From a virus (taxonomy: Duplodnaviria > Heunggongvirae > Uroviricota > Caudoviricetes), in the IMG/VR virus record IMGVR_UViG_2531839667_000012: a DNA stretch of 32,021 nucleotides. One strand, given 5' to 3'. Positions 5,078 through 29,199 of the stretch are shown piece after piece. The translations under genes and the position numbers were made by a program. Under the pieces are notes generated by a model, which made no database searches, had not been told where the DNA came from, and worked only from the letters and a program-made list of their open reading frames with translations. Within the stretch, counting starts at the first letter, position 1; the number at the start of each line of letters is the position of its first letter.

Positions 5078-5100
5078 AGCGTATAGGAAAAATATTCCCT

Positions 5101-5466
5101 ATGTCAACCGAGAAACAGGAAATATTTTACATTATTGGGGCTAGGTTGCGAGAAGAACGTGAGCGACTTGAGAAGAGCCAGAAATTTATGGCTGAGGCAC
5201 TTGGGGCGGATATCAAAACATGGAACAACTATGAGCGGGGGGCATCGGTGCCTGATGCTCATAAATTAACCATTATAGCGGCAGTGGGTGTAGACGTTCT
5301 GTATGTTCTGACTGGCAACCGCACGCCTGTAGTTACGTTGTCCAGTAAAGAGAGTGTGTTGGTCGAAAATTACCGTTCTGCTACGCCAGAACACCAGTCC
5401 ACCCTTGACACGGTTAGCGCTGCGCTTGCGCAACCGGGTGTAGGGAAGAAAGCTGGAGGGGCGTAA
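5101..5466 (+). CDS. XRE-family helix-turn-helix regulator (candidate immunity repressor / operon regulator)
   Basis: 121 aa; N-terminal IGARLREERERLEKSQKFMAEALGADIKTWNNYERG is an HTH_XRE/Cro-C1 pattern; AGGAAA upstream; stops 5 bp before the next gene. Confidence 0.8.
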   Translation: MSTEKQEIFYIIGARLREERERLEKSQKFMAEALGADIKTWNNYERGASVPDAHKLTIIAAVGVDVLYVLTGNRTPVVTLSSKESVLVENYRSATPEHQSTLDTVSAALAQPGVGKKAGGA

Positions 5467-5470
5467 TTTT

Positions 5471-5905
5471 ATGTTTAATACAGTATCTCTTATTATTGTT
5501 GTGATTTTGCTATGTGCTGTCGTTTCAGCTCTTATTACTCAGAAGAGAGAAAAGAAAAAAGGGAGCGTAGATAAAGTTAGTGATGAAATTTTACGTATCA
5601 GGTCTCTTGGGAAAAAACAACCGCTTTATTATTCTAACGCAACCACAAGATATGAAGAAATACCGCCGTCTGTTCAAAAAAATAGAAAAATTAATATACT
5701 GAAAATAGGAAAAGTAAAATATATCGCTTTCAGTTACATAGATAGTAAAGGTGATTTTACTCACCGTGAGGTGGATGTTTCATCTATAGATAATGAATAT
5801 TTACAAGGGTATTGCCACTTAGCTAAAGAGTATAGAACATTTCGCCTTGATAGGATTCAGGGGGATGTTATTTGTAGAGATACAGGGGAAGTTATTTTAA
5901 ATTAA
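5471..5905 (+). CDS. Membrane-anchored WYL-domain protein (N-terminal TM helix, C-terminal WYL-like ligand-binding domain)
   Basis: 144 aa; hydrophobic N-terminus VSLIIVVILLCAVVSALI followed by KREKKK; C-terminal YIAFSYIDSKGDFTHREVDVSSIDNEYLQGYCHLAKEYRTFRLDRIQ resembles the WYL signature; strongly AT-rich. Confidence 0.6.
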   Translation: MFNTVSLIIVVILLCAVVSALITQKREKKKGSVDKVSDEILRIRSLGKKQPLYYSNATTRYEEIPPSVQKNRKINILKIGKVKYIAFSYIDSKGDFTHREVDVSSIDNEYLQGYCHLAKEYRTFRLDRIQGDVICRDTGEVILN

Positions 5906-5929
5906 CGATAAATATTAAGTGAGGATGTT

Positions 5930-6331
5930 TTGAATACATATAATTTATTTATTAGTCATTCATGGAAATATAATGATACATATGAATCATTGGTACGTCT
6001 TTTAAAAGGAAGAGGATATTTTGATTTTAAAAATTACTCAGTACCAAGAATAGATCCTATCATTGGTGCTAATAGCCATTCAGCTTTATATTCAGCAATT
6101 CAAAATCAGATGCGACCGTCTCAGGTAGTTTTGATTTTAGCCGGTGTATATGCATCATATAGTACTTGGATTGATGCAGAAATAAGGATAGCCAAGGATT
6201 GGAAAAAGCCAATTATCGCTATTGAACCTTGGGGATCTGAGAGGACATCCAAGGTAGTAAAAGATGCAGCGAACAGAATTGTAAAATGGAACTCAGATAG
6301 TATTGTTAAAGCAATTAGAGAGTTGGCATAA
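5930..6331 (+). CDS. Minimal TIR-like domain protein (predicted NAD+-processing signal generator)
   Basis: 133 aa; begins LFISHSWKY (TIR betaA-like) and contains YASYSTWIDAEI, resembling the TIR SxWxxxE catalytic-glutamate motif; TTG start with GAGGA upstream; AT-rich. Confidence 0.6.
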   Translation: MNTYNLFISHSWKYNDTYESLVRLLKGRGYFDFKNYSVPRIDPIIGANSHSALYSAIQNQMRPSQVVLILAGVYASYSTWIDAEIRIAKDWKKPIIAIEPWGSERTSKVVKDAANRIVKWNSDSIVKAIRELA

Positions 6332-6341
6332 GGATTAACTG

Positions 6342-7307
6342 ATGAGAAAGGCTCTGTTTGTTGGGATTAATGAATATGCGGAAATTTCTCATCTTGCGGG
6401 ATGTGAAAATGATGCTATGAAGATGTCTGCGGCATTGTCCAGACATGCGGATGGGCGTCCTAATTTTGAAGGGAAAGATTTGATTCACCGTGAGCAGATG
6501 CCTGTAACTAAGGTATTGCTTGAGCAAGAAATTCAGACTTTATTCAGTGGTTCAGCAGATATAGCTTTATTATTCTTTGCTGGGCATGGGTATTTTGATG
6601 AAAATATAGATGAAGGGGTTATCATTCCTCATGATTACTCTTCTCATCAAAGCAATGGTGTGAGAATCAGTGATATCATGCTATGGGCATCGAGAGCAAC
6701 CAATATTAAAAATAAAATAATAATACTAGATTGCTGTCAGGCGGGCGCTGCCGGACAAGTCAGGAACTTAAGAGGTGGAGACTCCATTCTTGCTGATGGC
6801 ACAACAATATTAACCGCATGTCAGCGTGATGAATATGCGCAAGAGCAGGATGGTCAGGGTATTTTTACAGCCTTAATGTTGGAGGCTTTATATGGCGCAG
6901 GTGCTAATATATTGGGGCATGTAACACCCGGTAGTTTGTATAGCTTTGTTGACCAAGCATTAGGTGCATGGGAGCAGCGACCGGTATTTAAAACAAATGT
7001 ATCCAGATTCGTAGTGCTAAGAGAAGTCGGGCCAAGAATCCCGTTAGAAACATTAAGGCAATTACCTGATTGGTTTGCTAGTGGTAGTGCTGAATATCCT
7101 CTTGATCCTAGTTACGAGCCTGATTCAGGAGCACCAAATGAGGATAATGTAAGGATATTTCGGCAATTACAAGCCTGTAATCGTCATGGCCTTGTTGAAC
7201 CTGTTAACGCAGAACATATGTATTATGCAGCGATGAATTCAACTGCATGTAGATTGACCGCTTTGGGAGCCTATTATAGAAAACTGGCAGAGAAAAGGCG
7301 TTTTTGA
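6342..7307 (+). CDS. Caspase-like protease (peptidase C14 / metacaspase-like His-Cys dyad) with C-terminal domain of unknown function
   Basis: 321 aa; KALFVGINEY start, FFAGHGYF (His-Gly) and IILDCCQAGAAG (catalytic Cys) in caspase order and spacing; AAGGA SD 7 nt upstream; AT-rich. Confidence 0.8.
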   Translation: MRKALFVGINEYAEISHLAGCENDAMKMSAALSRHADGRPNFEGKDLIHREQMPVTKVLLEQEIQTLFSGSADIALLFFAGHGYFDENIDEGVIIPHDYSSHQSNGVRISDIMLWASRATNIKNKIIILDCCQAGAAGQVRNLRGGDSILADGTTILTACQRDEYAQEQDGQGIFTALMLEALYGAGANILGHVTPGSLYSFVDQALGAWEQRPVFKTNVSRFVVLREVGPRIPLETLRQLPDWFASGSAEYPLDPSYEPDSGAPNEDNVRIFRQLQACNRHGLVEPVNAEHMYYAAMNSTACRLTALGAYYRKLAEKRRF

Positions 7308-7332
7308 TTAATCGGGTGTACGGGGGTTGGTT

Positions 7333-12678: not shown

Positions 12679-13857
12679 TTACACGGTGGTGGCGATGGAT
12701 TCAGCCAGATTGACCAGATAGCGGTCAGTGATACGCTGGCGGAACATCAGGTTTTCCAGCGGCGGCACCGGGGTGTAGTCGTAGTCGATATACGCTTTAC
12801 CCGCTTTCAGGATGTCCGGCGTGTTGGCGGCGGGATCGAACCATGCGGAACCATCGACGATGTAGCCGTTGCCTTTCAGTTCGCGGAATTTGGCGTTCAC
12901 GCCTTCGATAATGTCGCGGAACAGAGAAGCGTGTTGCGGTTTATCTACCGCCCAGAAGTGGGCGTCGGCGATGGTATCCGCCAGCACCTGCGCGGTGCGG
13001 GTGTAGTTCTCAAAGGCAAACAGCGGATCGGTGCTGCAGGTGCGCGATCCCCAGAAGCGATAGCCGCCGTTGCAAATCAGCGTGGTGACGTCGTGGCTGT
13101 TGAGGTAATCGGAGTCGGTGGCGGTGGACTGGAGATCCCAGAATACGCTGCGGGAAATGCCGGTCACGCCGTTGACGTCAACGTTGGACAGCGTTTTATG
13201 CCAGCCGATTTCTTCATCAATTTTTGCACGCAGGCCCACGGCGCGGGCGGTGGCGTATAGGGTGCGTTCGGCAGCAGCCTGCGTATCAAAGCCGACAAAA
13301 TCCGGCCAGATAATCATCGCCTCCCGCGCACCGAGCTGATCGCGATACAGCACTGCCTCTTCTTTGGTCTGCGCGCCGAACGCCGACAGATAGCTGAAGG
13401 CGCGAAGCTGTTGTGAAATGCTGACCAGTTCGGTGGCGACGGGCAGAGAATCCAGCCCCGGTACCGCCAGAATGCGCGGTTTTATTTTCAGTTTGGTTTG
13501 CGAGTCCAGCAGTGCCTTCATGCCGGTGTATTTCCCGGCTGGCGTGCTGCCGCCGATGATATTGGCGGTGGTTTCGGCAGCGGAGTCACCTTCGGCTACG
13601 CGCACGGCGACCACCACCGGCTGCGTCTGGTCGGCGATGGCATCCAGAGAGTGCGCCAGCGTACCGCTATCACCGGCTTTACCCAGCGCAGATCGCACGT
13701 CGGTTAACAGTACCGGGGTATCAAGGGGAAAGGTTTTTTCATCGGCGTCTGATCCGGTGCAGACGATGCCGATCACGGCGGTGGAGATGGTACGGATCGG
13801 GCGTACGCCTTCATTGATTTCAATAACGCGCGCGCCGTGGTGGTAGTCGGTTGCCAT
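12679..13857 (-). CDS. FI: Contractile tail sheath protein (P2 gpFI-like)
   Basis: Start chosen at ATG 13857 (MATDYHHG...) with GGAGG 9 nt upstream; 393 aa. Confidence 0.9.
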   Translation of the reverse strand: MATDYHHGARVIEINEGVRPIRTISTAVIGIVCTGSDADEKTFPLDTPVLLTDVRSALGKAGDSGTLAHSLDAIADQTQPVVVAVRVAEGDSAAETTANIIGGSTPAGKYTGMKALLDSQTKLKIKPRILAVPGLDSLPVATELVSISQQLRAFSYLSAFGAQTKEEAVLYRDQLGAREAMIIWPDFVGFDTQAAAERTLYATARAVGLRAKIDEEIGWHKTLSNVDVNGVTGISRSVFWDLQSTATDSDYLNSHDVTTLICNGGYRFWGSRTCSTDPLFAFENYTRTAQVLADTIADAHFWAVDKPQHASLFRDIIEGVNAKFRELKGNGYIVDGSAWFDPAANTPDILKAGKAYIDYDYTPVPPLENLMFRQRITDRYLVNLAESIATTV

Positions 13858-13927
13858 AGGGCTGGCCTCCATCAGGTCAATAAATGACGATGGTGGCACA
13901 GAGCGAAAAGGGCGGTGACGGCTTCCA

Positions 13928-13950
13928 CTTGTAACCACTGGCACTACAAG
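13928..13950 (-). promoter_or_regulatory. Ogr-box dyad (CTTGTA-N11-TACAAG) of the late promoter for the FI operon
   Basis: cttgtaaccactggcactacaag about 80 bp upstream of the FI start; same 23-bp pattern occurs at three other late-operon heads. Confidence 0.6.
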
Positions 13951-13962
13951 CAGAAGCGGTTT

Positions 13963-14721
13963 TTAATTCAGGATAATCAATTCTGATGTGGCGCTGGCTG
14001 GCTTTCCACCTACGGTATAGCGAATCCCTACCGTTGAGAATGTCAGGCCGTGGAAGATATCGCGCATTTCCGGGATGTCGTTAACCGAGATAATCATCCG
14101 GCCCTGCATGGTGCGCGCCAGCTCTGCCATACGCTGGTACTGCTCAAGGCCAAATGGTACGCCGTAGCCTTCGGTTTTCCAGTATGGAGGGTCGCAGTAG
14201 AACAGGGTATGCGGGCGGTCATAGCGGCGAATACAGTCGGCCCAGTCCAGATTTTCAATGCAGACGCGCGCCAGCCGCAGATGGGCGGCGGATAAATCCT
14301 CTTCCATACGCAGCAGGTTCAGGCGCGGCGGTGAGGTGGTAGCGGTACCGAACGTGCGGCTTTCCACTTTGCCGCCGAATGCCAGCTTTTGCAGATAGTA
14401 GAAGCGCGCCGCGCGCTGGATATCGGTCAGCGTTTCTTCCGGGGTGATCTGGAGCCAGCGGTACATTTCGCGGCTGACCAGCGACCATTTAAACTGGCGG
14501 ACAAACTCTTCTAAATGGTGCTGAAGTACGCGGTAGAGGTTGGTAACGTCACCGTTGATATCATTCAGCACCTCGGCCTGTGCGGGCTGTTTCATAAAGA
14601 ACAACGCCGCCGCCCCGCAGAACGGTTCAACGTAGCAGCGGTGTTTGGGAAACAGTGGCAGAATGTGTTTTGCCAGCCTGCGCTTACCGCCGATCCACGG
14701 AATAACGGGTAACGTATTCAT
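13963..14721 (-). CDS. dam: DNA adenine N6-methyltransferase, Dam/D12 class
   Basis: 252 aa; motif I EPFCGAAALFF and motif IV FYCDPPYW; located between tail-fibre assembly gene G and FI. Confidence 0.85.
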   Translation of the reverse strand: MNTLPVIPWIGGKRRLAKHILPLFPKHRCYVEPFCGAAALFFMKQPAQAEVLNDINGDVTNLYRVLQHHLEEFVRQFKWSLVSREMYRWLQITPEETLTDIQRAARFYYLQKLAFGGKVESRTFGTATTSPPRLNLLRMEEDLSAAHLRLARVCIENLDWADCIRRYDRPHTLFYCDPPYWKTEGYGVPFGLEQYQRMAELARTMQGRMIISVNDIPEMRDIFHGLTFSTVGIRYTVGGKPASATSELIILN

Positions 14722-15185
14722 ATTGTCAATTTTCCAGACCGACTGCTGACCAACGCATACAGCAGATTAGGAGACCAGCGCCAACTATCGCGCAGGTGCA
14801 GAAATTCGGCGCAGAACTCGCTGCAAAACAGGCGTTCCTGTTTACCCTGACTGAGTAACACAAAACCCATGGCGCCCAGCCAGTCGTAACCTTTATCGTC
14901 GTGCTGACGAAAAAAGGTTTCCAGTGCCAGCGGATCGGCGTTGATCGGGAGTAAATCCCATTTCTCAATCGGCAGCGGCATTCTCTTGCTGCGCACGCCT
15001 TTATCCCGTACCGATGATGAGTAACAGATAAACAGGCCATCCGGCAGGCGTTCGACCAGTTCGCAGTGAGAGTAAGGGCCGCGCGTGACCTGTCGCGTCA
15101 ACCAGTCGGAGAGCCGGGCAAGGCTGAAAAAGCGTTCAGCCCGGCCACGGTAGAACGCCATGTAAACCTGACTCATGGTTGCCAT
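14718..15185 (-). CDS. Hypothetical protein (moron), translationally coupled between G and dam
   Basis: 155 aa ORF overlapping the G stop by 13 nt and the dam start by 4 nt; no motif recognised. Confidence 0.5.
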   Translation of the reverse strand: MATMSQVYMAFYRGRAERFFSLARLSDWLTRQVTRGPYSHCELVERLPDGLFICYSSSVRDKGVRSKRMPLPIEKWDLLPINADPLALETFFRQHDDKGYDWLGAMGFVLLSQGKQERLFCSEFCAEFLHLRDSWRWSPNLLYALVSSRSGKLTI

Positions 15186-15880
15186 CCTGACGAGTAGTCG
15201 TAACCCATAACCGCCTGCACCTCCGTCAATGCTTCAACGGCGGCAATATGCTGCTGGGCAGCGGCGAACAGGCGCATATCGTGCGCCATTGTTTCGGTTT
15301 CAAACCGGGCGGCGATTTCGTTGGTCAGTTCAATCAGGTTGTGATTTTTGGTCTGCCACATTAAGCCTGCCGGTATTTGTTTAGCCACGCCCATTTTGGT
15401 GAGCGAGAGCTGCTGGATGCGGCTGTTAGCGTCGCTGTGGAAATGGTGATTATCGATGATGATGTAGTCGGCGGTGATTCGATCGCGATACTGCTTTATT
15501 TCCGCCACCTTTGCCTGTCGGGCTTTTTCGATATCAGGCCGCCAGCGTTTGCCGTCCCAACGGACAAAGGCGTTATCGGGCTTCAGCAGAGTGACGTTAT
15601 CCGGCAATGGCCCCAGATGATGAAGCTGTACCTCACTGCCCGCATCGGTATCAAACGCGGTTTTACCGCGATGATCTTCTACCGCAAGCCATGTTTCTCC
15701 GTTGAATGTCAGGGCAAAGCCGCTCTGGCATTCGGGCGGTTCGATAGTGGTACAGCATTCCGGTAAGCCGGTGTTGGGGGCGATATAGGCGTCGCTGACG
15801 CCGATAAATTCCTGAGTATCTGCCGCGTAGTTAAAGATGCGCAGGGTTTGCGGTTCGTCGGAAAATGCGAATGTGCTCAT
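15173..15880 (-). CDS. G: Tail fibre assembly chaperone (P2 gpG-like)
   Basis: 235 aa directly downstream of the tail fibre gene, overlapping its stop; conserved N-terminal region of Tfa proteins. Confidence 0.8.
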
Positions 15881-17760
15881 GCCAGCCTCACGATATAGTT
15901 GAAAGCGATATTTTTAACGGTGTTTTCGGCGTTCCCGGCGGCGTTCACCGTAATAGTGTGGCTGTGGGAACCCAAGGCGATAGTGTGGTTATGCGCGCCG
16001 ATAGTCAGCGAATGAGTATGAGCGCCGATGGCTACTGTGTGAGTATGGACACCGTCTGTACTGGTTCTGAATTTGTAGTTATCCCAGTCTGTGTCTGCAG
16101 ACCCCTGATTATTACGGGTACTGTCGAAGTAACCGTGACGCCCACCGCTGGCTTCACCCCATCCGCTGTCGTGGTTGTGAGCACCGGCTGACGCTGTTGA
16201 TTTTGTCCCGTAGTCAAACGCGCTGGTATTTTTAGTACCCAAATCAGTGGAACTGGCGGTTTTAGTGCCTAAATCCGTGTTAGCGGCGCTGGCGGTGTGA
16301 CCATGAGATTTAACGCCATCCTGTTCCTGAGACAGTATCGTGCGTCCGCTGGCGGGCTTCCCCTTGATTGTCCAGCCTCGCATATCCGGGATTACACCGG
16401 AGGGGTAAGCGATTGCCAGTTTAGGGTAGGCGGTTTTATTGAAGGACTGACCGACCATCAGTGCATAGCCGCTAGGGATGGCATCGGATGGCCATGGAAT
16501 GGGAGCGCCTGCTGGGTAGAGTTCTTCTGGTAAGTTTCTGCTATTAAAATCTCGCCGCCAGCCGGGAGAGTATTGTGCTCCGTGATCGATATAGATAAAT
16601 TGCGCGTTGGCTATGCCTTTGGTCGATGTAGAGGGGGTAGTAATGCGGATTGTTTTTGCCGACTCAATACCCATGACCTCAATGACAGCGCCAGCCAGTT
16701 GAATATCGCCACAGCCTGTATCAGAAATGACTTTATTCGAGGCATAACTCCATGAACCTTTACACATCCAATAGGGGGTACTGAAAGCTCCCTGAACACT
16801 CAGCCAGCTTAGAAATTCAGTCGTAGTCCATGAGGCATCATTTCCACCAATAGACAGACTGCCGCTGAAGGCACGGCAGCGGCTATTGGCATTATCCATT
16901 ACTATTTTGACAGCCTTCGGTGTTGCGGCCATCGCCTCACTAACGTTATTGGTTTCGCTGTTAAGCTGGATTATCCCTTTGCGCATGGTGGTCGCATCCA
17001 GTGCGGTATATTTTCCATTAGCCAGATCGTAGGCCGCTTTCACGGCTTTAGGCGTGGCGGCCAGCGTTTCGCTGATACTGTCGATGGAGCTACTAAGCTG
17101 GACAATCCCTTTACGTGAGGTGGTGGCATCCAGTGCGGTATATTTTCCATTAGCCAGATCGTAGGCTGCTTTCACGGCTTTGGGCGTGGCGGCCAGTGTT
17201 TCGCTGATGCTGTTGGTCGCACTGCTTAATTGAGTAAAACCTTTGGCAGTTAACGTGGCGTCAGGATGGTTACGGGACTGCGCGTGGCGAGTCAGGCTTT
17301 CATCCACATACTGCCTCGTTGCCAACACTACGGCAGGGTCGATTTTCAGTTCCACGTTTTCCGTATGGGAGACAATCAACACCATGCGGATAATCTGCGT
17401 GCGACCCGAACCTTCGATTAGCTGCGGCTTGTAGGTTGGCGGGCAGTTGCCGACGGCAATCAGCCGGTCGTGCTCGTCGTACAGGCCAATTTCTCTGATC
17501 CACCATCCGCCTACGTCCTCCGGCAGCACCTGTTCGGCAATAATCTGGTTGGAGTTGTTAGGGTCAATACTGAGCGTATTCAGCGGTGCACGTCGACGTT
17601 CGTTGACTAGCCGGGTTTGACCGGTCTCCGGCGTTGGCAGGTTACCGTTTCCGTCGCCCACGGCCATTTGCGTCAGATGAAGAGGTGAACCCTGTGTGGT
17701 GGCGGTCGCCAGCGCGGATTCGCCAGTAGTGGTTAATAGCGTGAAATAGGTAGCGCTCAT
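15877..17760 (-). CDS. H: Tail fibre protein (P2 gpH-like N-terminus, divergent receptor-binding C-terminus with His-x-His repeats)
   Basis: 627 aa; N-terminal region and [37 protein letters not shown] repeats as I recall them in P2 H; C-terminus [33 protein letters not shown]. Confidence 0.9.
16862..17257. repeat. About three tandem copies of a 132-bp coding repeat inside the tail fibre gene
   Basis: Near-identical DNA blocks starting at about 16994 and 17126 (two full copies), with a diverged third copy at about 16862-16993; they encode the 44-aa protein repeat. Confidence 0.7.
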
Positions 17761-19622: not shown

Positions 19623-20221
19623 TACTGTGGCCCTCCGGTATTGCTACCCCCGCGCTCCACGCCTGTGTGCGTGTGGGTATGGACGGTGACGCCGTTGGAG
19701 GTAAAACTGCCGCCGCTGTGAGTGTAAGCGCCTTTAAGCGTGCCGCCTTTTTTAACCGACAGCGTGGTGGTTTCCAGATGCTGGGTGCAGACGACGAGCG
19801 GTGTATCCAGCGTGACGAGGGTACTGGCTTCGACCAGTGCGGTCTTGATGCCGGTGGCTTTTAACGCGCTGGAGCGCGGATCATATTCAATCACCGCACC
19901 ATCGGGGTAAATGGTGTGGTGAACCTGTTCATCCAGCATCGGGGCGGGGTTGGCGTCAGAGTAAATGGCCGGAAGCGCCACGGCGGTGGTTAACTCTCCG
20001 CTTAAACAGAGCAGTAACACCTGTTCGCCTGTTGATGGCCGCCACCACGTCCGGGCATCACCGGCGCGTAGCGTCAGCCACGGTATCCAGTTGGTGGTCA
20101 GTTCACCAGTGTGAATGCGTACTCGATCGCCCTTCACCTCTTCAACGGTGCCGGTACGGATCAGGTTTTCAATGCGCCGGTGCAGCTCGGCGATGTTGGC
20201 TGGGTGGTTTGCGTCGCTCAT
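19622..20221 (-). CDS. V: Baseplate spike/hub protein (P2 gpV-like)
   Basis: 199 aa; first gene after an Ogr-box promoter; C-terminal Gly/His/Thr-rich tip. Confidence 0.85.
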   Translation of the reverse strand: MSDANHPANIAELHRRIENLIRTGTVEEVKGDRVRIHTGELTTNWIPWLTLRAGDARTWWRPSTGEQVLLLCLSGELTTAVALPAIYSDANPAPMLDEQVHHTIYPDGAVIEYDPRSSALKATGIKTALVEASTLVTLDTPLVVCTQHLETTTLSVKKGGTLKGAYTHSGGSFTSNGVTVHTHTHTGVERGGSNTGGPQ

Positions 20222-20265: not shown

Positions 20266-20288
20266 CTTGTAGGATAATGGGCTACAAG
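20266..20288 (-). promoter_or_regulatory. Ogr-box dyad (CTTGTA-N11-TACAAG) of the late promoter for V-W-J-I-H-G
   Basis: cttgtaggataatgggctacaag located 45-67 bp upstream of the V start. Confidence 0.6.
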
Positions 20289-20327: not shown

Positions 20328-20663
20328 TTAACCGTGCGCAGCCTTCATCAGTGTATCGTTAATCCACTGGTTAACGCTTTTACCGGAGACTTCTGCCGCA
20401 ACGTTAATGGCAGAGTGAATTTCAGGTGGAATACGCAGGCTGATTTTTCCGCTGGCCGGACGCAACGGCTCCCGGCCCCGTTCCTCGCAGTAAGCCAGAT
20501 AGTCGTCTACCGCCTCTTCAAACGCTTTACGCAGATCGGCAACATTATCGGCATGAAAGCCAATGACATCCCGAATGCCTGCAACGTGACCAACAATGCA
20601 TTGATCTTCATCGCTGTATTCAATTTTTGCGGCATAGCCTCTATATGTCATGGTATTCATCAT
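20328..20663 (-). CDS. hicB: HicB-family antitoxin (RNase H-like fold N-domain plus C-terminal RHH DNA-binding domain)
   Basis: 111 aa; YRGYAAKIEYSDEDQCIVGHVAGIRDVIGFHADNVADLRKAFEEAVDDYL and C-terminal KISLRIPPEIHSAINVAA RHH-like segment; overlaps hicA by 4 nt. Confidence 0.85.
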   Translation of the reverse strand: MMNTMTYRGYAAKIEYSDEDQCIVGHVAGIRDVIGFHADNVADLRKAFEEAVDDYLAYCEERGREPLRPASGKISLRIPPEIHSAINVAAEVSGKSVNQWINDTLMKAAHG

Positions 20664-20923
20664 GGTGTTACCCCTACAGCTTCAAGGAATGTTCTGGCAT
20701 CGCGAACCTGATAGGCTTTCGCTTCTTTTTCCGGGTGTGGACGATGAAATGAAGCCACAACCTGATTAATTTCAAACCTGACGCGGGAACCGTTTCCTTC
20801 CGTAGCAATAGCCCCCAAAGCAATAAATAAGGCTTCTATTTTTCGCCATTCCAGCGTGACAGGTGTTGGCGTAGAAAAAACAGCTTGTAAGGTTTTTTTA
20901 TGTTTGGCGCTTAACGTATTCAT
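20660..20923 (-). CDS. hicA: HicA-family mRNA interferase toxin
   Basis: 87 aa; GNGSRVRFEINQVVASFHRPHP resembles E. coli HicA ANGSNHLKLRFHGRRSVMPRHP. Confidence 0.8.
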   Translation of the reverse strand: MNTLSAKHKKTLQAVFSTPTPVTLEWRKIEALFIALGAIATEGNGSRVRFEINQVVASFHRPHPEKEAKAYQVRDARTFLEAVGVTP

Positions 20924-20972
20924 ACAGGGTATTTTCCATAAGTTATTTTATTCTTCCGCCAAGATATAATGA

Positions 20973-23976: not shown

Positions 23977-23999
23977 CTTGTAACTGAGGGCAGTACAAG
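23977..23999 (-). promoter_or_regulatory. Ogr-box dyad (CTTGTA-N11-TACAAG) for a late promoter heading the X-lysis-R-S segment
   Basis: cttgtaactgagggcagtacaag about 75-95 bp upstream of the X start. Confidence 0.6.
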
Positions 24000-24339: not shown

Positions 24340-24535
24340 GGCGCACCTCCAGCGGTTTGCAGGAGACGAACACCAGCGGGAAACCCGCCAGCAGGTCGCG
24401 AGCCTCGATTTCAGTTGTTGCCAGTACAGACACCAGACGCAGGGGCTGGATCTCGCGCAGCAGGCGGTTGGAACGGGCGTTCAGGAAGGTGTAGAGCTTT
24501 GAATGTGCGCGTATGTTACTATTAGCGGTAGCCAT
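24329..24535 (-). CDS. Hypothetical small protein
   Basis: 68 aa ORF, divergent from the Arc-like gene. Confidence 0.35.
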   Translation of the reverse strand: MATANSNIRAHSKLYTFLNARSNRLLREIQPLRLVSVLATTEIEARDLLAGFPLVFVSCKPLEVRHGA

Positions 24536-24635
24536 AGCATTAGCCTCTTTAATGTTGTGGTCAGAGGCCCGTTGGTGTTGGTAGCACCTGCGGGCTTCGT
24601 TCGTTTAAGGGTTGCAAAACATCACGTAATTGCGA

Positions 24636-24676
24636 TGTAATTACAACTACATCATTCTAAGGATTTTGTAATTACA
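24636..24676. promoter_or_regulatory. Two copies of the perfect 10-bp palindrome TGTAATTACA (24636-24645 and 24667-24676); candidate operators in a divergent promoter region
   Basis: Second copy ends immediately before the ATG of the Arc-like gene; an additional half-site-like GTAATTG at 24626-24632. Confidence 0.55.
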
Positions 24677-24847
24677 ATGTCAAGTGAAAAGGCTAAAACA
24701 GATCAGTACCAACTTCGTCTTGCTCATGAATTTAGAAAGCAGCTTGAAGAACAGGCTCGTAAAGATGGAGATACCTCTCTCGCAACATGGATAAAACGCG
24801 TTTTGCGTAAGGAACTTCAGTCACGAGGTATTGAACCCAAAGGATAA
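24677..24847 (+). CDS. Arc/MetJ-type ribbon-helix-helix repressor (56 aa; below the ORF-track size cutoff)
   Basis: Hand translation MSSEKAKTDQYQLRLAHEFRKQLEEQARKDGDTSLATWIKRVLRKELQSRGIEPKG; QYQLRLAHEF...SLATWIKRVL resembles Arc beta-strand and helices. Confidence 0.6.
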   Translation: MSSEKAKTDQYQLRLAHEFRKQLEEQARKDGDTSLATWIKRVLRKELQSRGIEPKG

Positions 24848-24948
24848 TTACGGAGATATCAAGCAGCGCTAAGAAGTTAGGATTATTTGTTCAGCCCAGA
24901 TTAGTCGATATGCACTGATTAACTTAAACATTGTGTGTAGGAGGTGTT

Positions 24949-25602
24949 GTGGATATTGAATTTTTTCTTAAAGAGCGCACAAGATTCGTTACTTATTTCT
25001 ATGAAACGGCTGCTGCACCATTTGTTAACATCATGAATGATATTGAGAATGAAGTGGAACCTTATATTCAGCCGTATGGTGAGAGTGATGAACCAGCTTT
25101 TTTAGATGAATGGTTAGATGCAAAGTCGGGATTAGAAACCTGTGGGCACCATGCATTATCGATGCTTTCGTCTTCTCTTCAGTTGTACCTGAAGGCGTGG
25201 GTAGATCGCTTAGGATATCATAGCGTGAAATCTGATATAAATTTCAAGAAGGGTTGGTTTAATGGCTATCGTGAAATTTTCAACAAAATTGAGTTGGAAA
25301 TGGCAAAATGTCCTGCAAATTTGGAAATAATTGAACAAATTCCCTTGGTGAGAAATCGTGTCCAGCATCCTGAGGAACTTACCTCAATTAATATTTCTCA
25401 CTCAAAAAATGACTTGGAAAAATATCCTCGCCCATACTTTATTCAGGAGTGTGAGCTACTTTTGGCTTCCGAACAGGAAGAAAAATCGTGGTTATTCCCA
25501 CCTACAATATCCCCGACTAAAGAGAAAATATTCGAAGCTATCAGAAATGTTGAAATGCTGTGCTCTTGGTTAGAGTCTGAGTATTGGTCGGCTCTTGACT
25601 AA
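24949..25602 (+). CDS. Hypothetical protein, AT-rich cargo gene under the Arc-like regulator
   Basis: ORF in the track starts at TTG 24931; GTG 24949 follows a GGAGG SD (short spacing). About 217-223 aa; no motif recognised. Confidence 0.5.
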   Translation: MDIEFFLKERTRFVTYFYETAAAPFVNIMNDIENEVEPYIQPYGESDEPAFLDEWLDAKSGLETCGHHALSMLSSSLQLYLKAWVDRLGYHSVKSDINFKKGWFNGYREIFNKIELEMAKCPANLEIIEQIPLVRNRVQHPEELTSINISHSKNDLEKYPRPYFIQECELLLASEQEEKSWLFPPTISPTKEKIFEAIRNVEMLCSWLESEYWSALD

Positions 25603-29176: not shown

Positions 29177-29199
29177 CTTGTAATCATCCGGGTTACAAG
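29177..29199. promoter_or_regulatory. Ogr-box dyad (CTTGTA-N11-TACAAG) in the divergent O/P promoter region
   Basis: cttgtaatcatccgggttacaag, 73 bp from the O start and 61 bp from the P start. Confidence 0.55.

Follow-up and report, generated by a model that had tools for sequence, protein, structure and literature searches.

Gene layout of the G–FI junction

The stretch of DNA analysed here, hereafter the window, is a 32,021-nucleotide (nt) Caudoviricetes virus record (IMGVR_UViG_2531839667_000012). Between its tail-fibre assembly gene G (tfa) and its tail sheath gene FI lie two genes, a small open reading frame (ORF), hereafter ORF152, and a gene for an adenine methyltransferase (MTase). 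Five genes, H, G, ORF152, the MTase gene and FI, follow one another head to tail on the minus strand at 12.6–17.8 kilobases (kb) (Table 1), and the middle three lie where the first-pass annotation, made from the letters alone, had placed them. That annotation took the locus to be the P2 Z/fun hotspot, which agrees with the position of fun(Z) in the P2 record and with the description of the G–FI junction as a cargo hotspot of P2-like phages (bioRxiv 10.1101/2024.10.15.618418); Rousset et al. 2022 covers the cos-proximal old/tin hotspot and not Z/fun. We consider the two genes to be, probably, independent late cargo: a self-protective MTase and a thiol enzyme, ORF152, that moves with fibre modules.

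Both junctions of ORF152 are ATGA overlaps. The G/ORF152 junction reads CAACCATGAGT, in which the TGA stop of G (15175–15173) overlaps the ATG of ORF152, and the ORF152/MTase junction reads CAATATGAAT, in which the stop of ORF152 overlaps the ATG of the MTase gene (4-nt overlap). Translational coupling of all three genes, proposed earlier, is in keeping with these overlaps. The small ORF had been correctly described as overlapping both neighbours, but its length of 155 amino acids (aa) needs correction. Its true start is most likely the ATG at 15176, giving 152 aa, because this codon has an AGGA 8 nt upstream, homologues start with MSQ... and public gene calls give 152 aa; the alternative ATG at 15185 would overlap G by 13 nt and has zero spacing from an AGG. 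The sheath gene starts at ATG 13857 (MATDYHH...) and not at GTG 13944, with public gene calls also giving 392 aa, so a 105-nt non-coding gap lies 3′ of the MTase gene.

ORF152 is a real gene rather than a chance ORF, as thousands of homologous clusters are found by profile and the exact protein recurs across public assemblies. The profile reaches 4018 representative clusters (50% identity) at E ≤ 0.001, of which 1699 pass E ≤ 1e-10. An index of public assemblies has the exact 152-aa protein in 619 of its blocks; 24 contigs were read, and the order tfa (235)–152–MTase (252)–sheath (392) stands in 6 of the 6 places shown, on enterobacterial contigs of 4.4–5.4 Mb and smaller. The prophage is common in enterobacterial genomes. 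A DNA-level search of phage records gave only matches of about 73%, to the sheath gene, and no close relative of the junction. The GC content at the junction is 0.53–0.58, as in the rest of the phage, with three low-GC islands elsewhere in the window.

The occupant of the same junction in P2, fun(Z), is a lysogenic-conversion gene of 528 aa on the opposite strand, behind the terminator of the V operon, whereas the cargo in the window appears to be wired into late expression. ORF152 is not a Fun(Z) homologue: the best BLASTP match has an E-value of 6.3, and length, strand and expression logic differ as well.

ORF152 is predicted to be a permuted papain-like enzyme

ORF152 is a soluble, basic protein (17.8 kDa, pI 9) with no hydrophobic segment and no signal peptide. 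It matches no Pfam family at E ≤ 1, no NCBIfam model and no PADLOC family at E ≤ 1. A profile of 38 homologues matches a single PDB sequence, the 'cysteine peptidase' 3kw0 of B. cereus (E = 4e-4), through two co-linear matches that place SH37 on Ser48-His49 and C118-S-E on the region of the catalytic Cys154. The two members of the resulting Cys/His dyad, with His37 N-terminal to Cys118, are invariant in all 38 sequences, as are E39, S53, S55, R57, D58, R62, K64, W73, Y97, D98, G101, E120 and P136. Of these, Y97 is a candidate active-site tyrosine by its sequence position only, 21 residues before the Cys compared with 13 in YiiX and 27 in BcPPNE.

The predicted fold is papain-like, with an NlpC/P60 core, and its closest folds are YiiX and then PLAAT4, TseH and CLN5. 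Foldseek against the PDB gave no significant match, and its matches in BFVD are all uncharacterised phage proteins. We know of no bacterial YiiX-like protein with a known function. The YaeF/YiiX-like group of circularly permuted NlpC/P60 enzymes includes YiiX of E. coli (2if6) and BcPPNE of B. cereus (3kw0) (Xu et al. 2011, PMC3142127). ORF152 is 15–16% identical to these two and about 30–40 residues shorter; unlike them, it is phage-borne and has no lipoprotein signal. We conclude that ORF152 is a Cys/His acyl-enzyme catalyst and represents an uncurated new subfamily of the permuted NlpC/P60 (YiiX-like) group, with a thioester chemistry that we infer from the predicted fold and the invariant dyad. 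A large and mislabelled phage family is thereby placed in the permuted papain-like YiiX group with a Cys/His pair, and C118 and H37 offer concrete mutable targets for a putative late-infection thiol acyl-enzyme.

The mislabelling stems from phrog_1128, which ORF152 matches and which is labelled 'enoyl-CoA hydratase/carnithine racemase-like'. We discard an enoyl-CoA hydratase or carnitine racemase, there being no hit to Pfam ECH or any other family and a predicted fold that is papain-like, not crotonase. The label has spread to GenBank, where it is found on SuMu gp51, Pasteurella phage Pm86 and Ralstonia phage RP12. Literature on STM4198, and on an 'enoyl-CoA hydratase' beside tail fibre assembly, yielded no function.

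A Pfam scan of longer family members for fusions found no domain. One protein of 254 aa (P0166) carries a C-terminal extension of about 118 residues with an HExxH motif (AHEHVHCEQ); this single case may reflect either fusion to a small metallopeptidase or an error in gene calling.

ORF152 travels with the tail-fibre module

We compared the neighbourhoods of the family in 123 loci from species-representative genomes and IMG/VR, obtained by a genome scan from a 20-sequence alignment. Genes in these loci were called with the family ORF forced in, the loci were collapsed to 52 clusters at 70% identity, and a protein was counted as tfa-like if transitively similar to G or to SuMu Tfa. A tfa-like gene occupies position −1 in 75 of the 123 loci and 30 of the 52 clusters, as against 13 of the 52 clusters with a D12 methylase at +1 to +3, and on this comparison ORF152 travels with the fibre module and not with the methylase. 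The upstream gene is on the same strand in 107 loci, and in 84 of these it overlaps the called family ORF. In Pfam and PHROG scans, the upstream neighbours are DUF4376, Caudo_TAP and several Tfa PHROGs, with gpX in 8 Pseudomonas/Stutzerimonas loci; those downstream are muramidase (11), D12 methylase (10), sheath (8), tube (8), C5 methylase (3), Com (2) and N6_Mtase (1). In 9 of the 52 clusters the family ORF leads straight into sheath and tube genes.

The tfa–ORF152 order is found in P2-like prophages, in the Mu-like phage SuMu and in the Salmonella STM4198 element, and in Moraxella phages the family gene lies among genes annotated as tail proteins. In the STM4198 element of Salmonella Infantis (locus L001, 4010–5257), the family gene is the last phage-like gene and is followed by a hexapeptide-repeat acetyltransferase gene. 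In Serratia microhaemolytica (L004, 2367–6870), fibre and tfa cassettes in the order H, G, H, G are followed by the ORF152 homologue and then by another H-like gene, which suggests that the fibres encoded on its two sides are alternatives or can be exchanged.

This association would also be expected if ORF152 were dedicated to maturing or modifying the fibre. Produced together with G, it would cleave or acylate H, G or a factor bound to the fibre, and function rather than shared mobility would explain why its gene follows tfa. The frequency of tfa at −1, the upstream overlaps, the recurrence of the arrangement across P2-like, Mu-like (SuMu) and Moraxella phages and the embedding of the Serratia gene among several fibre cassettes all speak for such a role, which we nevertheless consider unlikely. 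P2 and most P2-like phages assemble their fibres without ORF152, the tfa proteins upstream of it come from several families, and the gene also follows gpX (8 loci) or precedes a muramidase (11). Distant members lie elsewhere, among small Pfam-less genes on a 120-kb contig, at a head–tail junction and in Ralstonia jumbo phages. A weak further point is that the text of the SuMu mass-spectrometry study (PMC3447690) names 20 proteins and the family protein is not one of them. A chaperone role like that of Tfa itself was set aside, as ORF152 belongs to no tail family in Pfam or PHROGs and its position alone ties it to tfa. The first-pass annotation had named a structural tail-fibre-assembly accessory as one finding that would overturn its view. 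ORF152 is indeed conserved beside tfa, but its enzyme-like character and its absence from P2 show that it is not a core structural accessory.

In P2-like prophages of Pseudomonas and Stutzerimonas (L045, L046, L049, L058, L060, L061 and similar loci), the homologue is located between gpX (69 aa) and a gene near an N-acetylmuramidase gene, and thus in the lysis region, not after tfa. This placement favours an auxiliary lysis or envelope enzyme, released through holin lesions, that splits an acyl-amide or ester in lipoproteins, phospholipid or peptidoglycan-linked Lpp and thereby helps to break the outer membrane or stops progeny from readsorbing to debris. The closest folds are those of proteins that bind lipids or act on them, and the bound fatty acid and hydrophobic S1 pocket of YiiX (PMC3142127) fit this role, as do the next closest folds PLAAT4, TseH and CLN5, the apparently late expression and a missing signal peptide, as in endolysins. 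We regard it as distinctly unlikely for the window, where, as in most close relatives, the gene is far from a lysis cassette that is already complete (two holins, muramidase, LysB-like and LysC). ORF152 has no membrane-targeting feature, and no YiiX-like protein is known to act enzymatically on envelope substrates.

A bolder proposal, which we rate as improbable, is that ORF152 founds a phage-specific permuted NlpC/P60 branch tied to the fibre module and acts as a late thiol acyltransferase or deconjugase. If so, an enzyme that covalently edits fibre or chaperone proteins, or that frees them of conjugates attached by the host, would constitute a new virion-maturation or counter-defence class, present in P2-like and Mu-like phages and in others such as the Moraxella prophage-derived phages.

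Tail fibres are a target of ubiquitin-like conjugation by the host. A permuted papain fold with a Cys/His dyad, encoded next to fibre genes, might serve in counter-defence, for instance as an isopeptidase by which tail proteins lose ubiquitin-like or other protein conjugates, or as a peptidase that cleaves a host immune protein late in infection. The spread of the family over very different phages, lytic jumbo phages included, is what would be expected of anti-defence cargo. We think this very improbable: the idea is purely analogical, ORF152 has no ubiquitin-binding feature, and no defence system of the required kind was found beside it.

An orphan adenine methyltransferase

The MTase scores 101.9 bits against PF02086 (cut-off 22; 6e-29), with residues 9–225 aligned to profile positions 1–241 of 253, and no restriction endonuclease gene lies beside it, its neighbours being ORF152 and the sheath gene FI. 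Its earlier assignment as an orphan D12-class adenine methyltransferase is thus upheld. Of the two motifs cited for it, DPPY is present (motif IV, 177–180), and the supposed FxGxG is in fact FCGAA (motif I, 34–38), an FxGxA variant with the last Gly replaced by Ala. Motif I is N-terminal to motif IV, the alpha-class order. The only PADLOC matches are to generic MTase_II and orphan-MTase models, of which MTase_II PDLC03253 matches end to end (2e-114).

The closest known group comprises Pseudomonas phage B3 ORF48 (66% identical over the full length) and the enzymes of VP882, phiE125/phi1026b and BcepMu-like phages (65–72%). B3 ORF48, of one clade with the enzymes of Vibrio phage VP882 and of the Burkholderia phages phiE125 (gp27) and phi1026b (gp26), shares with the window MTase the alpha-class motif order and a phage-borne, orphan setting; it differs in lying between tail genes with Com before it, whereas the window MTase gene is ATGA-coupled to ORF152 at the P2 G–FI junction. 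Literature on phiE125 gp27, VP882 Dam and Klebsiella methylomes held nothing on function or specificity. By its sequence, the MTase is a member of the B3 ORF48 clade and appears to be a late-expressed orphan methylase that protects the phage, a kind already known and a routine example of phage self-protection.

The name Dam, used in the first-pass annotation, is unsupported for this enzyme. A Dam (GATC) specificity is unproven from the sequence, since the MTase falls below both curated NCBIfam Dam cut-offs (TIGR00571, 105.4 against 114.85; PRK10904/NF008152, 62.1 against 441). E. coli Dam and T4 Dam share with it the D12 catalytic domain, an FxGxG-like motif and DPPY, and the match to E. coli Dam (2g1p) is distant (phmmer E = 3e-14). 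In the HMMER alignment, the residues opposite Dam K9, Y119, N120, L122 and R124, which we take to be the DNA contacts of the 2g1p structure, are P, F, G, K and E; the contact positions thus appear not to be conserved, in an alignment that is poor at the target-recognition loop. The window shows no avoidance of GATC (131 sites against 122 expected), a count with no bearing on the specificity of the enzyme. A 'Dam' label on this MTase should not be taken as GATC specificity.

Com and the pairing of the two genes

In Mu-like prophages of Neisseriaceae and Pasteurellaceae, a recurrent right-end module consists of tfa, an ORF152 homologue, Com and an adenine methylase of the B3 ORF48 type or the Hia5 type (L010, L019–L021, L025, L033, L044, L047, L067 and L122; SuMu, L002 3442–5619). 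B3 ORF48 is itself preceded by a Com gene, and Neisseriaceae prophages carry the same clade behind a Com-like zinc ribbon; in SuMu, Com and a Hia5-type methylase come after the ORF152 homologue. Relatives with both an ORF152 homologue and a methylase have Com between the two in 13 of 17 loci, in a spacer of 300–380 nt. Directly upstream of the window MTase gene there is no Com zinc-ribbon gene, with a 4-nt overlap in place of the spacer. Such direct abutment occurs in two lineages among the 17 loci, that of the window and one Pasteurella locus. The window lineage is unusual in that Com has been lost and the MTase gene is ATGA-coupled directly to ORF152.

Related slots hold methylases of other families. 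Hia5, Hin1523 and Nma1821 take the place of mom in the right-end region of Mu-like prophages; they methylate adenine non-specifically and protect DNA against many restriction enzymes (Drozdz et al. 2012, PMC3299994). This group shares with the window MTase a late position after tail-fibre genes and an orphan, anti-restriction character, and SuMu-type homologues follow ORF152 homologues in 9 genome loci. It is, however, a different D12 subfamily, B3 ORF48 not being among the 1000 closest relatives of Hia5 according to its authors (PMC3299994), so a relaxed specificity of the window MTase is possible and does not follow from the comparison. In the Burkholderia P2-like phage KS5, gp21–gp20 give the order tfa–Com–MTase–FI, read as protection from host restriction (PMC3091744); this methylase, at the same junction, is of a different family (PF01555, N4/N6), has Com present and has no ORF152 homologue beside it.

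The coupling in the window lineage invites the view that ORF152 and the MTase form one system, either a defence or modification pair or a Mom-like two-step DNA hypermodification, in which the thiol enzyme needs or modulates the methylase. The two genes are paired in every one of the places shown on the public contigs, a methylase lies within three genes downstream in a quarter of clusters (see above), and both genes sit at the position of Mu com–mom. We give this view very little credence. The Com-bearing spacer usually separates the two genes, the downstream methylases differ in family (B3 ORF48-type, Hia5-type, C5 and N6_Mtase), most family members have no methylase nearby, and B3, PhiKM and KP12 carry an MTase of the clade seen in the window but no ORF152. 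ORF152 also lacks a nuclease or DNA-binding fold. The intervening Com unit and the different methylase families are the reasons for which we see ORF152 and the MTase as separate cargo; the small protein, once thought of as the partner of the methylase, is better described as a Cys/His enzyme with a permuted papain-like fold, and its conserved neighbour is tfa. A restriction–modification or toxin–antitoxin pair is rejected, as ORF152 has no PADLOC match and the MTase matches generic MTase models only.

A probable late transcription unit

The dyad TTGTA-N11-TACAA has four exact matches in the window (0.36 expected), and none of 100 shuffles reaches four copies. The four copies stand before FI, before V, before the holin and lysis genes and between the divergent O-like and P-like genes (Table 1). 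The copy before FI, 72–92 nt upstream of the ATG, has a spacing like that of the pF activator site in P2, which the P2 record places 69–97 nt upstream of the FI ATG. We infer that the four dyads are binding sites of a late activator of the Ogr family. The copy at 20267–20287 is probably the activator site of a late promoter that opens the V-W-J-I-H-G-ORF152-MTase unit. Between 13500 and 15500, a sigma-70-like site and a minus-strand terminator were both sought and neither was found. With dyads at the operon heads and no internal promoter-like site or terminator, the genes from V to the MTase gene are most simply read as one late transcript, and expression of ORF152 and the MTase in the lysogen is accordingly unlikely.

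The only hairpin in that interval (13500–15500), of 13 bp and directly 3′ of the MTase stop, has the dyad before FI as its core. It may both end the V operon and double as the activator site of a pF-like FI promoter. We do not treat it as a proven terminator, since its predicted RNA fold (−21.2 kcal/mol, z −1.7) is not exceptional and it lacks a proper U-tract.

Two roles had been offered for the methylase, protection of phage DNA from host restriction and altered host gene expression. The former is the best supported. The latter is unlikely, since the gene closes a late operon, has a late-promoter dyad on either side and has no promoter-like site of its own. A prophage MTase may stay silent in the lysogen, as M.EcoGII does (PMC5778455). 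As the MTase would be expressed late, a comparison of lysogen and cured methylomes could be negative despite an active enzyme; virion DNA is the right sample.

Proposed roles of the two genes

In the explanation that we favour, two independent cargo genes, the MTase would be made only late, from the V-operon transcript, and would methylate replicated phage DNA before packaging, so that the progeny could resist adenine-methylation-sensitive restriction in the next host. The enzyme would be equivalent to mom, doing the same job as the gene in the mom position of Mu-like phages, and its specificity need not be GATC. The translational activator Com would have been lost in the window lineage, with coupling to ORF152 taking its place. 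In ORF152, Cys118 and His37 would form an acyl-thioester intermediate and, by analogy with its closest structural relatives, the enzyme would most likely act on an amide-linked substrate, from which it removes an acyl or lipid-like group by hydrolysis or transfer. ORF152 would thus be a non-essential late accessory of a large phage family, moving with tail-fibre and tfa modules and not acting as a partner of the MTase. We observe the gene order and overlaps, the protein family with its conserved residues, the computed fold and the neighbourhood statistics. Whatever likelihood is left by the four specific readings of ORF152 set out above (fibre, envelope, counter-defence and one system with the MTase) goes to an independent late accessory.

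Several observations weigh against this explanation. The tight linkage to tfa in most close relatives could reflect a functional link to fibre assembly, and the quarter of clusters with an MTase nearby leaves room for a link to DNA modification. ORF152 does not match Pfam Peptidase_C92 (PF05708), even at E ≤ 1. The acidic position of the triad, Glu64 in YiiX and BcPPNE and about 15 residues after the His, is Ser/Ala54 here; the invariant Glu39 might substitute for it, by analogy with the water held by Glu47 in PPPDE1. Lastly, the late-activator site of P2 has the consensus TGT-N12-ACA, unlike the dyads in the window, whose spacing corresponds to TGT-N13-ACA, and the P2-style TGT-N12-ACA is not enriched in the window (3 matches, 5.4 expected).

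Other features of the window

Table 1 Positions of the genes and sequence features in the window
Feature	Position	Strand	Remarks
HTH protein	5101–5466	+	Low-GC island
WYL protein	5471–5905	+	Low-GC island
ThsB-like TIR protein	5930–6331	+	Low-GC island
Caspase-like Peptidase_C14 protein	6342–7307	+	Low-GC island
Tail sheath FI	12679–13857	−	392 aa; Pfam sheath domains; first gene of the next late operon
Hairpin, 13 bp	13918–13960	−	Directly 3′ of the MTase stop; core is the dyad 13929–13949
Dyad	13929–13949		Before FI; 72–92 nt upstream of the FI ATG
Methyltransferase	13963–14721	−	252 aa; orphan alpha-class D12 N6-adenine DNA methyltransferase; PF02086
ORF152	14718–15176	−	152 aa; program-listed as 14718–15185
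Tail-fibre assembly protein G/tfa	15173–15880	−	235 aa; Caudo_TAP N-terminal part and DUF4376; Pfam and PHROG matches
Tail fibre H	15877–17760	−	627 aa; Pfam Phage_tail_fib, Phage_fiber_2, Collar
Dyad TTGTAGGATAATGGGCTACAA	20267–20287		Before V; 46–66 nt upstream of the V start at 20221
Dyad	23978–23998		Before the holin/lysis genes
Dyad	29178–29198		Between the divergent O-like and P-like genes

A low-GC island on the plus strand (5100–7310; 32–46% GC against 57%) lies between a primase-like gene and gpD. Its four genes look like TIR-plus-caspase defence cargo, presumably resembling 'type IV Thoeris'. A second low-GC stretch, at 24500–25600 (0.39–0.40), holds an ORF of 223 aa (24931–25602, plus strand, TTG start) with no Pfam match, which may be further cargo next to the lysis genes. 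A HicA/HicB toxin–antitoxin pair on the minus strand, at about 20328–20930, is inserted between the tail genes S and V; it lies immediately before the dyad of the V operon, and the local GC content dips to 0.42.

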